NCBI RefSeq assembly: GCF_003334255.1
Contig: NZ_QOWU01000103.1
Length of the DNA: 5,793 bases
Reading direction: 5' to 3' (one strand)
Source of the DNA: Escherichia coli
GTDB taxonomy: Bacteria; Pseudomonadota; Gammaproteobacteria; Enterobacterales; Enterobacteriaceae
Part shown: in pieces, positions 2,363-4,939 of the stretch
Layout: the number at the start of each line of letters is the position of its first letter
How positions within the stretch are numbered: position 1 is the stretch's first letter
The notes under the pieces: generated by a model
Told to the model about the DNA's origin: nothing
Databases searched by the model: none
The model's input: only the letters and a program-made list of their open reading frames with translations
Program-made: the position numbers and the translations under genes

Positions 2363-2382
2363 GCACTGGAGGTTTTTATTTT

Positions 2383-3099
2383 ATGCAATTGGATGAACAT
2401 TCAAGAAAAATTGCTGCTCTTGTTGCGTATAATGATAAACAAATAAAAGAAATGAACAGGCTAATTACTCTGCTTAATGAAAGAGTGAATGACTTAAATA
2501 CCTTTACAAGTACTCTTGAACGTGAAGGTAAAGTTGTTTCTGGAATTTCTTATTCCTTTAGGGATAGTGTGTCTAATGTTAAATTTTATATTAATAAAGG
2601 AATGGATGAGGCATCTTGTAAATTACAGAAATCAGTCTCAGATACACTAACGTCATTACTCCGCGAAAAATTATCTTTCACTCTCAATGATGTAAAGAAA
2701 GAGTGGGTTGATTTCGAGGAGCAAACAAGTAAAGAGATAAAGGAATCATTAAAGCAGACGACCAGAGAGGCCGAAGTTGCGACAGGTATAATTAGAAAAA
2801 CAATGGAGAAGTATACAGTAACAAGGATTGTCGAAAAGGTAATTGTGTTGATTGTATTATTTTTATTGCTAATGATCGCTCCTGTTTTCTATGCTGAATA
2901 TCTCAAAATGAATATTAGTTCGCTAATGGAAGAACAGAAAAAACATGAATCCATGTTAAAAGAATGGAAAGAAAAAGCTCCATTGGCCGAGTTCTCGAAG
3001 TGTGGAGATTATCGTAAAGCATGCGTGTTAGTTGATGACGAAAGCGGATATTATTTTAATGAACAATCACCAAATAAAAAATATGCCATACTGAAATAG
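2383..3099 (+). CDS. Hypothetical membrane-anchored protein, 238 aa: N-terminal coiled-coil-like region, one predicted transmembrane helix (VIVLIVLFLLLMIAPVFYA), and a ~65-aa C-terminal domain with two cysteines
   Basis: ORF with a GGAGG Shine-Dalgarno 9 nt upstream of the ATG, starting 20 nt after the mobA stop. Markedly AT-rich compared with mobA. No family recognised by eye. Confidence 0.6.
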   Translation: MQLDEHSRKIAALVAYNDKQIKEMNRLITLLNERVNDLNTFTSTLEREGKVVSGISYSFRDSVSNVKFYINKGMDEASCKLQKSVSDTLTSLLREKLSFTLNDVKKEWVDFEEQTSKEIKESLKQTTREAEVATGIIRKTMEKYTVTRIVEKVIVLIVLFLLLMIAPVFYAEYLKMNISSLMEEQKKHESMLKEWKEKAPLAEFSKCGDYRKACVLVDDESGYYFNEQSPNKKYAILK

Positions 3100-3156
3100 T
3101 GTTAAGTAACTCATGCCGTCTTATGACTAAGGCTGCATGAGTATAAAAACGGCGTT

Positions 3157-3729
3157 TCACGTAAAAATAAAATAAATACCTGTACCTAATATAAAAATGG
3201 AACTACATATGCTTATGTATCTTGAGAATGATGGCGTCAATTTATCCCTTATCGTTAAGCTAATAGCTATGTAAATAAGATCTGTTAGGAATGATATAAA
3301 TATAAATAAAACACCCAATATAAAAAAGTTTAATGTGATATTTGTATTATTATCTATAAAGGTTGGTATTAACGCAGCAAAGAAAAGATACGCCTTGGGG
3401 TTTAATAATGGTATCAAAAAAGGTTTTTGCTCTTTTCTTTGTTTGTTTTTTTTATTAATTAAACCCATTAATCCTATGTATATTAAATAGCCTCCACCGA
3501 ATATTTTTATAATGTGAAAATGTTGTTCTGTGCTGGATGTTGAGGATAACGCGAAAAGAGATATTGCCATGACGATAGTCTCGCCAATTCTTATGTATAT
3601 ACTTGTTTTTATTGATGACTTTAATCCATGTAAAAAGGCATTGTTTATAACCAATGCAACGCCAGGCCCTATTGATATAGTTTGCGATAAGGTTACGATA
3701 GCAAATGATAATAATGTTGAATATTCCAT
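3157..3729 (-). CDS. LysE/RhtB-family (LysE translocator superfamily) small-molecule exporter, 190 aa
   Basis: Multi-pass hydrophobic protein. The N-terminal segment LSFAIVTLSQTISIGPGVALVINNAFLHG resembles the RhtB/LysE N-terminal signature (LSPGSGAINT...), and LNPKAYLFFAALIPTFI resembles the conserved NLTNPKSIVFLAALFPQF region. Length is typical of the family. Start codon lies 6 nt after the upstream gene's stop. Confidence 0.7.
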   Translation of the reverse strand: MEYSTLLSFAIVTLSQTISIGPGVALVINNAFLHGLKSSIKTSIYIRIGETIVMAISLFALSSTSSTEQHFHIIKIFGGGYLIYIGLMGLINKKNKQRKEQKPFLIPLLNPKAYLFFAALIPTFIDNNTNITLNFFILGVLFIFISFLTDLIYIAISLTIRDKLTPSFSRYISICSSIFILGTGIYFIFT

Positions 3730-3735
3730 GTTTAC

Positions 3736-4686
3736 TTACCATGATATATTTCGTGGGAGCTTTTCATATACATATTCCATAGGAATTGCAGCTTTCGGTA
3801 ATAAATTTATAAATGTTGATATGTGTTTTAGTGAATTGCTGGCGGCGATTGAGTAAAAATTTCCGCTATTCCAATATATTGATGCGTATTTAAAATGTTG
3901 TTTAATTGCGGAAAGCATATCGTCAACACTAACTTCATTCAAATTCATTGTGTTTAGTACGATTTCCTTTTTGGTGTTAATCTCATCTTTCGAGAAATAC
4001 CTTTGTTTGAATGAATAATCTTTTTGGATTTCTCTTTTTTGATATTCATCATGTTCTGAACTATGTTTTTCTGTAAATATGAAAATACCATCATTATTTA
4101 ATAGCCTTTTTACGTGGTTTATTTGCCCAGATCTGTTAGGTGGGTACATTTGAAATGTGGTGTCTTCTATTATAATATCGAATCCTTGATTAAATTGTTT
4201 AAGATTTGAATTTTTTAGTCTTTCCTCTAACAGGAAAAATGGAGTGCAAATAAAATAAGCGTTTTCACTTGAGCCATACTTAAAAAATGCATGTTCATTT
4301 TCTTTTGTTGGACTGGTTGTTAATGTTTGTATGTTTCCTTTTGATAATTCTGAAATGGTTCTTGCCATTGCGCCCTCAGCCATACCAAGACACCATGTGT
4401 TTAATTTTTTGTTTAGCGTGATTGCGTATTTTATTACTGTTGTTCCTAATCTGCACTCTTCTTCCTTGCTGTATGGTATACTGCAAAAATAATGATTAAC
4501 GAAAGGGCCGCTGTTTTTTGTGAGGTGTTTGGCAAACTTAATGTAATCATAAGAATGAAAAAGCCGATCATCTATTTCTACTAGTCTAAAAGGTTTGTGT
4601 TTTTCCCCTGATGCAGTTGATGAGAAAAATTCTGCCATGCCGTTTATTCTCGGAGCGGAAATACATTCATTTATAAAATTATTCAT
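3736..4686 (-). CDS. Hypothetical enzyme, 316 aa, with a divergent class I SAM-dependent methyltransferase-like motif pattern; substrate unknown
   Basis: Long minus-strand ORF with a GAGGA Shine-Dalgarno about 8 nt upstream of the ATG. Motif-like strings in the expected order and spacing: WCLGMAEGAMA (motif I-like, glycine-rich), FDIIIEDTTF (motif II-like), VKRLLNNDGIFIF (motif III-like). First gene of an operon with the LysE exporter. The CDS call is firmer than the functional call. Confidence 0.6.
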   Translation of the reverse strand: MNNFINECISAPRINGMAEFFSSTASGEKHKPFRLVEIDDRLFHSYDYIKFAKHLTKNSGPFVNHYFCSIPYSKEEECRLGTTVIKYAITLNKKLNTWCLGMAEGAMARTISELSKGNIQTLTTSPTKENEHAFFKYGSSENAYFICTPFFLLEERLKNSNLKQFNQGFDIIIEDTTFQMYPPNRSGQINHVKRLLNNDGIFIFTEKHSSEHDEYQKREIQKDYSFKQRYFSKDEINTKKEIVLNTMNLNEVSVDDMLSAIKQHFKYASIYWNSGNFYSIAASNSLKHISTFINLLPKAAIPMEYVYEKLPRNISW

Positions 4687-4939
4687 TTTCCTATCCTCTG
4701 GTTTGATTTTTGGAATTTGTTGTTATGACTCTTCAATGCTAATTCTCTTGTAAGCTTTTTTACACGCCATAAACACGATTATGATGTTTTATATTGTCGA
4801 TATTTCGTTGTCCAGACTGGATATGTTTGGAAATTTGTTTTCATGCGGGTTAGTTCAGCTGGCTTTCTGGATGAGAAAGTTTGCTGTTTTGACCAGTTCG
4901 CGCTTCTGAAGGGGTGAAACCGATCATTAATCGCTTTTG

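Follow-up and report, generated by a model that had tools for sequence, protein, structure and literature searches.

We consider it probable that the low-G+C tract in the window, by which we mean the whole 5,793-nt stretch of Escherichia coli DNA analysed here, is a composite lying in the cargo slot of a ColE2-type plasmid, that it has been swapped between plasmids by exchange at oriT and cer, and that the cassette it contains is a producer-exporter of a small metabolite. On sequence comparison, the tract fills the only dispensable slot of its plasmid family, which extends from the relaxase domain of mobA to cer and in relatives holds a colicin-immunity-lysis operon.

Plasmid identity and backbone

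The window is a complete 5,716-bp plasmid followed by 77 bases of verified wrap-around, and this 5.7-kb plasmid is a mobilisable member of the MOBQ4/ColE2-like (Col156) family; in plasmid typing its relatives are Col156, and the window plasmid itself is rep_cluster_2141. The gene for the ColE2-type initiator, rep, is on the plus strand, with its 5' part at 5239-5793 and the rest at 78-452 on the circle; it is annotated in RefSeq and its product matches PF03090 (Replicase, E 3.5e-42) and, weakly, the second ColE2-type initiator domain PF08708 (PriCT_1, E 0.016). Overlapping the end of rep, a ColE2-type replication origin, aaaatgagaccagataacaagccttatcagataacagcgcc, can be read from the sequence at 449-487 on the plus strand. 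We take it to resemble the ColE2-P9 origin; a scan of the window with the 32-nt ColE2-P9 pattern, allowing up to three mismatches, gave no match, owing to a 3-nt insertion. The location of the origin downstream of rep agrees with the published description of the family (Garcillan-Barcia et al. 2019, PMC6856555), as does the divergent arrangement of mobA and the relaxase accessory gene mobC (659-1105, minus strand), which RefSeq annotates as 'TraD' and which matches PF06412 (TraD, E 1.7e-8).

The 361-aa MobA (1277-2362, plus strand) is a MOBQ relaxase (NF041496 MobQ, E 8e-29), placed in MOBQ4 by its MobQ/TraA_Ti matches at E ~1e-28 and by the divergent mobC with oriT between the two genes. Its conserved relaxase domain (1277-1999, aa 1-241) is ~90% identical to those of Col156 relatives and is followed by a lineage-specific 120-aa tail (2000-2362); the tails across the family (120, 275, and 378 aa) are unrelated to one another. 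In PLSDB, the DNA of the mobA tail occurs only in carriers of the island; it is also shared, at 77-88%, with 4,585-bp plasmids that carry ORF240. On the plus strand, oriT (1190-1260) comprises an inverted repeat at 1190-1212, a second (GTTTCTC...GAGAAAC) at 1224-1246, and the element AGTGCGCTCC at 1247-1256; the latter presumably resembles the RSF1010 nick motif, and the nick position is inferred from that likeness. At the other side of the tract, the cer-like accessory region (4864-5054, plus strand), where backbone homology to all relatives restarts, adjoins the XerC arm of the core over ~190 nt, presumably as in ColE1 cer; roughly 1,300 plasmids share this cer region. The XerC/XerD core itself, GGTACGTACAA-GAGGAG-TTATGGTAAAT, was located by a site scan at 5055-5082 on the plus strand, with one mismatch in the XerC arm and none in the XerD arm. 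Two site-specific recombination sites, oriT at ~1190-1260 and the cer core at 5055-5082, lie just outside the tract; the earlier note made from this sequence had not linked them to it.

The closest known systems include the MOBQ42 colicin plasmids such as ColE9-J and pDPT1 (PMC6856555), which share with the window plasmid Rep, the origin, the divergent mobC and mobA genes with oriT between them, a cer-like site upstream of rep, and the placing of cargo between mobA and cer. In the colicin E2 plasmid L026, for example, the order is mobC, mobQ, col-imm-lys, cer, and rep. Colicin operons were present in all MOBQ42 plasmids then known (PMC6856555), but no colicin, immunity, or lysis ORF was found in the window, where the slot holds ORF238, LysE, and ORF316; a colicin operon is a descriptive rather than a defining trait of MOBQ42. 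The window plasmid further differs in its MobA, which at 361 aa is shorter than theirs (516-739 aa), has an unrelated tail, and is followed by ORF238, and in its cargo, which is an enzyme-exporter pair of 32% G+C.

Composition of the tract

Two-changepoint maximum-likelihood segmentation of the circular plasmid placed the edges of the tract at 2373 and 4844, with a G+C content of 31.9% inside and 50.4% elsewhere (log-likelihood ratio 99.8; 200 shuffles gave 5.1 on average and never more than 11.2). The earlier note had reported an abrupt drop at the mobA stop codon and a recovery by ~4860; both agree with the segmentation, the left changepoint being 11 nt past the stop (2362) and the right one at most 16 nt from the position given. 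It was also correct that the G+C content is low, but the quoted 25-30% is slightly too low a figure: the mean is 32%, and 200-nt windows inside the tract range from 26.5% to 37.5%. The step recurs at synonymous sites, and with a GC3 of 0.27-0.29 in the three tract genes versus 0.35-0.56 in backbone genes the foreign-looking composition is borne out.

Instead of a foreign origin, low G+C could reflect selection for AT-rich DNA or the demands of the encoded proteins, if these are of membrane or coiled-coil type with much Ile, Lys, Asn, and Phe, and LysE and ORF238 are in fact membrane or coiled-coil proteins. We regard this explanation as very unlikely, because it is the synonymous sites that are most AT-rich, the soluble enzyme ORF316 has the same composition, and the non-coding DNA at 4687-4867 is likewise low, at 35% G+C. 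The rhizobial homologues of ORF316 are 51-59% G+C, and the family therefore needs no AT-rich coding.

Homology breakpoints and parts of the tract

That positions 2363-4860 form one acquired unit of cargo, with its edges at the G+C step, did not survive alignment with related plasmids. With the 3.9-4.3-kb relatives, homology stops at ~1999, inside mobA at the junction of the relaxase and tail domains; with the 4,585-bp relatives, it continues into ORF238 and stops at 2456. It restarts at the outer cer edge (4864-4877) in L003, L014, L024, and L026. Alignment for an empty-site version, which the earlier note had proposed, yielded not a plain insertion but a replacement, in which 911 bp of a 3.9-kb relative gave way to 2,865 bp.

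ORF238 (2383-3099, plus strand) begins 20 nt past the mobA stop, with a GGAGG ribosome-binding site 10 nt before its ATG, and encodes a protein with a coiled-coil N-terminus, one TM helix, and the C-terminal motif W.KAP.A[DE]..CG....C that has no family match in Pfam, NCBIfam, or PHROG. It is under purifying selection (dN/dS 0.23). Homologues with 47%, 34%, and 24% identity lie directly behind MobA proteins of 364, 327, and 344 aa in L022-L024, L025, and L033, all of which lack LysE and ORF316. Being found without the other two genes and as the partner of a short MobA in all contexts examined, ORF238 is by its gene neighbourhoods part of the mobilisation module and not cargo.

The true cargo is ORF316 plus LysE (~3100-4863), extending from a hairpin to the outer edge of cer. 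The hairpin (3109-3142) is an inverted repeat with 15-nt arms between the convergent ORF238 and LysE genes; it probably serves as a bidirectional terminator and marks the cassette's left end, and a copy of the cassette on a different replicon (L011) begins at 3123, in the middle of it. Both cassette genes are on the minus strand: ORF316 (3736-4686), the first gene of the operon, encodes a CmoA-like class-I enzyme of SAM-methyltransferase fold, and a 6-nt gap separates it from the gene for a 190-aa LysE/RhtB-family amino-acid-type exporter (3157-3729; PF01810, E 5.3e-19 over residues 17-188). Upstream of ORF316 is an AT-rich, non-coding leader region (4687-4863, minus strand), which is retained in L004 and L011 beside deletion joints; a sigma-70 promoter scan of this region gave no match above threshold.

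The earlier note had found no recombinase, inverted terminal repeats, or target-site duplications, and family searches of the ORFs together with a repeat search upheld this. No window ORF matches a transposase or integrase, the family matches being restricted to Rep, MobC/TraD, MobA, LysE, and the methyltransferase fold; around the tract, the repeat search returned only chance-level matches of 12-17 nt and neither terminal inverted repeats nor target-site duplications. The entire 2.5-kb tract could nevertheless have arrived in one piece on a transposon, integron, or integrase element whose recombinase and ends were later lost or eroded. Its sharp compositional edges would suit such an origin, as would the occurrence of the same DNA beside IS26 and IS91 inside large plasmids; however, these large-plasmid captures include flanking backbone and are therefore plasmid fragments, not the island alone. 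Beyond the missing recombinase ORF, inverted end repeats, and target-site duplication, its two parts also occur apart, with ORF238 found where there is no cassette and, in L011, the cassette where there is no ORF238; the left G+C edge does not coincide with the homology breakpoints; and no plasmid has the mobA tail directly joined to cer, whether in the PLSDB search with the tail or among the 4,585-bp relatives. Of all the origins considered here, insertion as one island strikes us as the most improbable.

Probable module exchange at oriT and cer

Exchange between related plasmids, one route that the earlier note had envisaged, is shown by the mosaic identity maps. The arc from oriT to cer is 99.9% identical to that of plasmids of the L012 type, whose rep-ori-mobC arc differs by ~15%: compared with L012, L029, and L030, the window has 3-4 differences in 1204-5066 and ~280 in the other arc. 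The boundaries are at 1203|1204, in oriT, and at 5066|5067, the first difference (5067) being in the 6-nt central region of the Xer site. Relative to L013, divergence rises from 5.5% to 18.6% at the Xer core, and the left boundary is within 1183-1294. A block delimited by oriT and the Xer core is hence seen against both L012/L029/L030 and L013, which amount to just two independent intra-family comparisons for the cer boundary, as L012, L029, and L030 are of one backbone type. The left boundary falls at 1183-1247 relative to L003 and L014. In three large plasmids (L034, L002, and L035), a hybrid cer core connects the same segment with ColE1-type DNA; in L034 this core is GGTACGTACAA-TTAAGGGA-TTATGGTAAAT, and ColE1-type exc2 and colicin genes follow it.

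Ordinary RecA-dependent homologous recombination might have generated the same mosaic, with oriT and cer appearing as boundaries merely as the best-conserved and longest identical tracts. A 63-nt identical tract (5003-5065) does adjoin the core in the comparison with L013, oriT is conserved across the family, and RecA-dependent crossovers would therefore also tend to fall in the conserved sequence around oriT and the core. Moreover, L013 has a third boundary inside rep, at ~100-200, that is not associated with any specific site, so ordinary homologous recombination also acts in the ColE2-like family. Against RecA as the source of the mosaic, L034, L002, and L035 switch at the Xer core to ColE1-type DNA lacking flanking homology, and their core combines an XerC arm of window type with a central region of ColE1 type; the first difference from the L012 type is located exactly in the 6-nt central region; and with L028, whose mob module is distant, homology sets in at oriT (1208). 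We therefore think it unlikely, though with a real chance of being correct, that homologous recombination accounts for the mosaic.

Host Xer recombinases are known to move cargo that has no recombinase of its own in the pdif modules of Acinetobacter (XerC/D-XerD/C; PMC5790767, PMC7399989), and the tract resembles them in this respect. Those modules have two good inverted Xer sites, whereas the window has one convincing site, its second boundary being oriT. The segment might still be a pdif-type module moved by XerCD alone if an inverted Xer-like sequence at 2033-2061 is paired with the core at 5055-5082. That sequence has 4+2 arm mismatches and a 7-nt spacer (~0.03 such sites are expected by chance per window), and is situated 34 nt past the homology breakpoint (1999); the left junction of L002 and L035 (2075) is 14 nt away from it. 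Its XerC-like arm, however, matches at only 7 of 11 positions, it lies within the mobA coding sequence, and the L002/L035 junction is outside it rather than in its central region; in addition, the 4,585-bp relatives share the mobA tail yet have no match of this type, and no plasmid was found with an exchange ending at 2033-2061. A pdif-type origin is accordingly given very little credence.

Under the favoured reading, exchange at oriT and cer, two related plasmids in one cell would be fused at cer by the host XerCD recombinases, and the plasmid relaxase, acting at oriT, would then trim the fusion to unit length, either during mobilisation or via oriT-oriT recombination, the outcome being a scar-free chimera. 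Strain SCU-106 contains two island plasmids. On this view the tract lacks a recombinase since it is not self-mobile, and no scar is left since exchange takes place at functional sites, namely oriT, 1.1 kb left of the compositional edges, and cer, 0.2 kb right of them. A model of small-plasmid evolution by exchange of modules bounded by oriT and an Xer site was reportedly proposed by Tran et al. in 2012 (Antimicrob Agents Chemother 56:1821, cited in PMC6764390); it is said to involve, as here, small mobilisable plasmids, host XerCD, plasmid relaxase, and scarless joints, but the window plasmid is ColE2/MOBQ4 and not ColE1, and its cargo is different.

The ORF316-LysE cassette

The best NCBIfam match of LysE is TIGR00949 (homoserine/threonine efflux), at 61 bits versus a cut-off of 184, and its scores against the substrate-defined equivalogs RhtB, RhtC, LeuE, ArgO, and EamB are all below cut-off. 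ORF316 has the Rossmann-like, seven-strand methyltransferase fold, but alignment shows that at motif I its family has LG.AEG.MAR in place of GxGxG, and S-P-x-x-x-N at the acidic position that ends strand 2. ORF316 was rejected as CmoA, the carboxy-SAM synthase, as it is far below both equivalog cut-offs (TIGR00740, 27.5 versus 193.3 bits; NF011995, 18.6 versus 285). It differs from CmoA and from the BelI/CysG C-methyltransferases in its low identity (11-16%), in an extra, highly conserved N-terminal region of ~90 aa, and in invariant motifs of its own (EDTTFQMY, WNSGNF, and SIPY..EEE.R); furthermore, the neighbour of ORF316 is always an exporter rather than a tRNA-modification partner.

The pair is found in the same order, adjacent or overlapping, in Citrobacter, Pectobacterium, Klebsiella, Niallia, Blautia, and one further plasmid, a range from Enterobacterales to Firmicutes in which stop and start codons often overlap. 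The ORF316 family alone extends from Enterobacterales to streptococci, cyanobacteria, and fungi, and in Chromera an enzyme fold of the ORF316 type is fused to an EamA exporter. LysE is 39-45% identical to its Citrobacter and Pectobacterium counterparts, with a dN/dS of 0.18. In most hosts the cassette is AT-richer than its flanks, e.g., 33% versus 57% G+C in Pectobacterium; no close donor was found, the nearest homologue being 55% identical at the protein level. The association is old, as the earlier note had allowed for the acquisition: two island alleles diverge with dS of 0.19-0.32, matching that of mobA (0.20). All three island genes are under purifying selection, and ORF316 has the lowest dN/dS of them (0.09). 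ORF316 has been lost at least twice independently with LysE kept, and the reverse was never observed.

Going by the cassette sequence, its product is most likely a small, polar, amino-acid-like compound, derived from a primary metabolite by the putatively SAM-dependent enzyme and exported by the LysE pump; this compound may act in allelopathy or signalling and stand in ecologically for a colicin. Alternatively, the cassette might serve defence or detoxification, methylating an incoming toxin and pumping it out, or LysE alone might be under selection, for efflux of amino acids or their analogues, and ORF316 be dispensable. We consider these alternatives rather unlikely: the strict operon of enzyme then exporter across phyla, together with the fusion to an exporter, is the pattern of a producer-exporter, the nearest structural relatives (CmoA, BelI/CysG) are biosynthetic enzymes, and ORF316 is the most constrained of the three island genes.

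LysE-family pumps are known to be encoded with antimetabolite biosynthesis, as with AmbA in the AMB cluster (PMC4357302) and in the gvg/FVG cluster (PMC8064604). There too a LysE-type pump is beside biosynthetic enzymes, and the secreted product is an amino-acid antimetabolite; however, the AMB and FVG pathways comprise 5-8 genes (NRPS, oxygenases), whereas the cassette has one enzyme and a pump. With a single enzyme beside the pump, the product would therefore be one step from a primary metabolite.

The determinants of microcins 15m and 93m were reportedly small plasmids. These 'historical' E. coli microcins, from intestinal strains, are small, secreted, methionine-related inhibitors that act on homoserine O-succinyltransferase and are reversed by methionine (PMC6795089, PMC12162799). 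By analogy, a small plasmid whose colicin slot encodes a SAM-fold enzyme and an amino-acid exporter would be a fitting determinant for such a compound. The likeness is one of description alone, with no link by sequence, map, or strain, and the island is carried by 0.5% of complete E. coli genomes, as against 7% of neonatal isolates for the 15m/93m phenotype. That ORF316-LysE is a minimal factory of one enzyme and one pump for a secreted, amino-acid-like inhibitor or signal derived from SAM or a primary metabolite, that it is used by E. coli as a substitute weapon for the colicin operon, and that it is possibly the determinant of the methionine-antagonised microcins (15m/93m class) is, taken as a whole, a speculative proposal that we consider improbable.

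Significance

In itself the compositional island is ordinary: it corresponds to the accessory slot in a much-studied family of plasmids, and a published mechanism accounts for its scarless mobility. What the window adds is unusually clean sequence evidence for the oriT/Xer mechanism in ColE2/MOBQ4 plasmids, in the form of a 3.9-kb arc with boundaries within a few bases, to which the hybrid cer junctions in large colicin and microcin plasmids contribute further. The plasmid also revises the claim that ColE2-like MOBQ4 plasmids all carry colicin operons. A cross-phylum enzyme-exporter pair occupies the exact position of the bacteriocin in its relatives, which makes the hypothesis of a secreted product directly testable; if the reading as one enzyme and one pump were true, the ORF316 family would define a new class of small-molecule producers.

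Plasmid Identity and Gene Organization

Bases 1-77 of the window recur at 5717-5793, and the sequence matches JE86-ST05_p5 (NZ_AP022820.1), a circular E. coli plasmid of 5,716 bp, at 100% identity. The rep gene (5239-5793, then 78-452) encodes a ColE2-type initiator (PF03090, E 3.5e-42), and a ColE2-like ori was read by eye at about 449-487; the ColE2-P9 ori pattern, allowing up to three mismatches, found no match in the window because of a 3-nt insertion. The remaining genes are mobC (659-1105, minus strand; PF06412), which is annotated as "TraD", the MOBQ relaxase gene mobA (1277-2362), ORF238 (2383-3099), a LysE-family exporter gene (3157-3729, minus strand; PF01810, E 5e-19), and ORF316 (3736-4686, minus strand), and a cer-type core, GGTACGTACAA-GAGGAG-TTATGGTAAAT, lies at 5055-5082. 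The transfer origin, oriT, comprises an inverted repeat at 1190-1212, a second one (GTTTCTC...GAGAAAC) at 1224-1246, and then AGTGCGCTCC, which we take to resemble the RSF1010 nick motif. The mobC frame is open for 177 codons (659-1192, minus strand), as against the 148 codons (659-1105) of the RefSeq annotation, and the additional 29 codons would reach into the oriT inverted repeat. A permissive-threshold Rfam search of the window gave no match, neither a riboswitch upstream of ORF316 nor a catalogued RNAI, a custom scan upstream of ORF316 gave no sigma-70 promoter, and a promoter and terminator scan of the window found 11 elements versus the 12.3 expected from shuffles.

The plasmid is a member of the MOBQ4/MOBQ42 (Col156) family, in which mobC and mobA are divergent with oriT in between, a cer-like site is present, the cargo consists of colicin operons, and the relaxases share a conserved domain but a C-terminal part that is just 35% identical (Garcillan-Barcia et al. 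2019; PMC6856555). Among island-bearing plasmids, the rep leader and 5' half of rep (5083-5793 and 1-100) are by far the most divergent part, at 72-84% identity in 150-nt windows, and the ori-proximal region at 500-600 is similarly variable; the rep-leader divergence fits a role in ColE2-type copy control and specificity. Some records hold tandem copies, three of a small plasmid in NZ_CP133872.1 (17,158 bp) and nearly two in the 8.6-kb contig L022; either multimers or errors in assembling circular molecules could explain them.

The Low-G+C Tract Is Composite

Two-changepoint likelihood segmentation, with 200 shuffles as a control, placed the low-G+C segment at 2373-4844, beginning 11 nt past the mobA stop codon, with 31.9% G+C inside versus 50.4% outside. 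The log-likelihood ratio was 99.8 versus a shuffle maximum of 11.2 (n=200), bearing out the abrupt drop described in the earlier note, and GC3 is 0.27-0.29 for the three tract genes and 0.35-0.56 for the backbone genes. That note had also reported an absence of recombination scars, and we agree: ORF and family searches of the window revealed no transposase or integrase ORF, and a repeat search around the tract found no terminal inverted repeats or target-site duplications. A 12-nt repeat, TTGCTGTT[A/T]TGA, that lies close to each homology breakpoint (at 1938 and 4881) was dismissed as being at chance level, about 13 such pairs being expected in 3.5 kb.

Alignment with relatives gave the breakpoints. 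The 3.9-4.3-kb Col156 plasmids L003 and L014 are homologous to the window over 461-1998 (about 91%) and again from 4864-4877; relative to L003, 2,865 bp stand in place of 911 bp. The left breakpoint is mobA codon 241, and the relaxase domain is ~90% identical in all relatives, whereas their tails (120, 275, and 378 amino acids) are unrelated. The right breakpoint is about 190 nt from the cer-type core on the XerC side and marks the outer limit of the cer accessory region; roughly 1,300 PLSDB plasmids share this cer region. In L026, a colicin E2 plasmid of this family, the order is mobC, mobQ, colicin-immunity-lysis, cer, rep; because its colicin operon lies between mobQ and cer, the low-G+C tract occupies the cargo slot of the family.

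The tract is nevertheless a composite of ORF238 and the ORF316-LysE cargo. A word-indexed protein search returned only close copies of ORF238, but an exhaustive HMMER search recovered relatives at 47%, 34%, and 24-25% identity, which in every context read directly follow, or overlap the end of, a short MobA (364, 327, and 344 amino acids). LysE and ORF316 are missing from all of these contexts (the 4,585-bp MOBQ42 plasmids L022-L024 and contigs L025 and L033), and homology of L024 to the window runs over 465-2456, taking in the mobA tail and 74 nt at the start of ORF238, before resuming at 4864. ORF238 is therefore a mobilization-linked gene of a short-MobA sub-lineage. Its gene is AT-rich wherever it is found (38% G+C in L024 and 34% in L025), and the family has an N-terminal coiled coil, one transmembrane helix, and a C-terminal W.KAP.A[DE]..CG....C motif; the AlphaFold2 model from six sequences was poor (pLDDT 57). 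Weak coiled-coil-type PADLOC matches (AbiZ, E 6.5e-4) were regarded as spurious.

The cargo proper is therefore confined to the convergent ORF316-LysE operon, which extends from a hairpin at 3109-3142 to position 4863; L011, an unrelated replicon, has a copy that covers 3123-4914 and in which ORF316 is internally deleted. The earlier note proposed an acquisition that left no obvious scar, for example by recombination between related plasmids, or that is old enough for scars to have eroded. This is upheld in part, as to age, lack of scars, and movement by recombination between related plasmids, but the unit and its edges had been misjudged.

Probable Exchange at oriT and cer

Compared with three island plasmids of one backbone type (L012, L029, and L030; 5,682-5,701 bp), the window differs at 3-4 positions across 1204-5066 and at about 280 over the other 1.85 kb. 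On the left the differences stop at 1203, inside oriT; on the right they set in at 5067, base 2 of the Xer central region. The 5,728-bp allele L013 falls into three arcs, with 0.3% divergence over ~110-1293, 6-7% over 1294-5066, and about 19% from 5067 onwards; its divergence steps up or down at oriT and the Xer core once again, and also at one point within rep. The oriT boundary is seen again versus L003 and L014 (1183-1247), and homology to a distant mob module (L028) begins at 1208.

In three large plasmids (L002, L034, and L035), the segment stops exactly at the XerD arm and is followed by ColE1-type exc2 and colicin genes. The L034 core is GGTACGTACAA-TTAAGGGA-TTATGGTAAAT; because its window-type XerC arm is joined to TTAAGGGA, presumably the ColE1 cer central region, it is, judged by sequence, a hybrid site. 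Together with the boundaries at oriT and the Xer core, the hybrid reads as a probable signature of cer cointegration followed by oriT reduction: host XerCD would fuse two plasmids at cer, and the relaxase would then reduce the cointegrate at oriT. This model was reportedly published by Tran et al. in 2012 for qnrB19 ColE1 plasmids. RecA-dependent crossing-over in conserved stretches is a real rival explanation of the exchanges within the family; it cannot account for the ColE1 hybrids. Co-residence of the kind that cer/oriT exchange needs is found in E. coli SCU-106, which holds two related island plasmids, pSCU-106-6 (L029; intact allele-1, 5,689 bp) and pSCU-106-7 (L032; ORF316-deleted allele-2, 5,237 bp, with a different Rep type).

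L034 itself (NZ_OZ547118.1, an 82-kb plasmid) contains window 225-5082 at 99.8-99.9% identity. At its positions 3036-4022, corresponding to window 1115-1219, a 98-nt unit comprising the mobC 5' end, its promoter, and the first oriT inverted repeat is repeated in tandem about 11 times; this amplification may be real or an assembly artefact. In the IncF plasmids L002 and L035, the captured segment (window 2075-5082) is surrounded by bacteriocin genes, with mcbE/F/G of microcin B17 on one side and a ColE1-type colicin cluster on the other. The mobA tail contains, at 2033-2061 (minus strand), a weak inverted Xer-like sequence, GCTTCCTTCAA-GGTCGTT-TTAAGGTCAAT, with 4 + 2 arm mismatches; matches as good are expected about 0.03 times per window by chance. 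It is situated 34 nt past the breakpoint of homology and 14 nt from position 2075, which is the left junction in two large plasmids.

Alleles, Deletions, and Distribution of the Cassette

The cassette was found in 28 of 5,426 complete E. coli genomes and was plasmid-borne every time. E. coli has two allele classes (99.8% and 92.4%), and dN/dS between alleles is 0.09 for ORF316, 0.18 for LysE, and 0.23 for ORF238, all genes being under purifying selection. Because dS of the tract genes (0.19-0.32) resembles that of mobA (0.20), the association of the tract with its present mobA is old. ORF316 has been lost at least twice independently by internal deletion (3882-4789 and 3781-4639), the former joined at the 7-nt microhomology TATATTG (L004 1749-1755, in a deleted variant). 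All ORF316-deleted variants retain LysE, and the reverse, ORF316 alone, is absent from the records, a hint that the enzyme may carry a cost or be toxic when its pump is missing.

ORF316 and its homologues form a distinct family of proteins, 315-340 amino acids long, with the invariant motifs EDTTFQMY, WNSGNF, and SIPY..EEE.R. AFDB models with the full-length ORF316 fold come from Pectobacterium, rhizobia, streptococci, cyanobacteria, and Penicillium, and every one of these proteins is uncharacterized. The 863 amino acid Chromera velia protein A0A0G4HCU9, annotated as EamA-domain-containing, matches the entire ORF316 model (TM 0.96 over the query; AFDB), and the models suggest a natural fusion of an ORF316-type enzyme with a DMT-family (EamA) exporter. 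PHROGs gave nothing beyond "tRNA methyltransferase"-like and unnamed LysE families, and a marginal PADLOC match was regarded as spurious.

The same gene order, with LysE adjoining or overlapping the enzyme gene that precedes it, is seen in Citrobacter (next to MobA and TraD), Pectobacterium, Klebsiella (an ICE-like region), Niallia (next to a prophage), Blautia, and one unnamed plasmid; rhizobial ORF316 homologues have no neighboring exporter. G+C of the pair is below that of its flanks in most hosts (Pectobacterium, 33% versus 57%; the L017 locus, 40% versus 51%), as is that of the Rhizobium enzyme gene alone (51% versus 57%). On the Pectobacterium brasiliense chromosome (L007 6001-7588), the pair is a 32-33% G+C islet in 57% G+C DNA, with a sugar ABC transporter on one side and gcvTHP on the other; because no mobility gene is nearby, it is another scar-free low-G+C islet. 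In Blautia (L020 3685-6594), the cassette is preceded by quorum-sensing genes of the agr type, for AgrB, a LytTR regulator, and a histidine kinase; in Klebsiella michiganensis (L018 341-6568), its neighbors are genes for AfsA, ACP, and a ketosynthase together with the T4SS genes of an ICE. Both neighborhoods concern signaling molecules. The nearest protein homologue is only 55% identical, and for that reason the donor of the cassette is not identifiable.

Possible Function of the Cassette

LysE pumps belong to the toxic non-proteinogenic amino acid clusters AMB (PMC4357302) and FVG (PMC8064604), and we infer that the ORF316-LysE pair would make and export a small amino-acid-like compound. AZE-synthase, SAM-lyase, and nicotianamine-synthase-type chemistries for ORF316 were set aside, no such structure being among its top 50-60 fold matches. 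The "historical", methionine-antagonized microcins 15m and 93m are amino-acid-derived homoserine O-succinyltransferase inhibitors, and inhibitors of this type were found in 7% of neonatal Enterobacteriaceae (PMC6795089, PMC12162799). Their producer strains are E. coli LP15 and LP93. A link between these microcins and the cassette is a lead rather than a result, and a literature search on plasmid details of microcin 15m found nothing usable. Overall, the structure is a new cargo variant in a known plasmid family, mobile through a known mechanism, and the potentially new biology is limited to the function of the enzyme-exporter pair.
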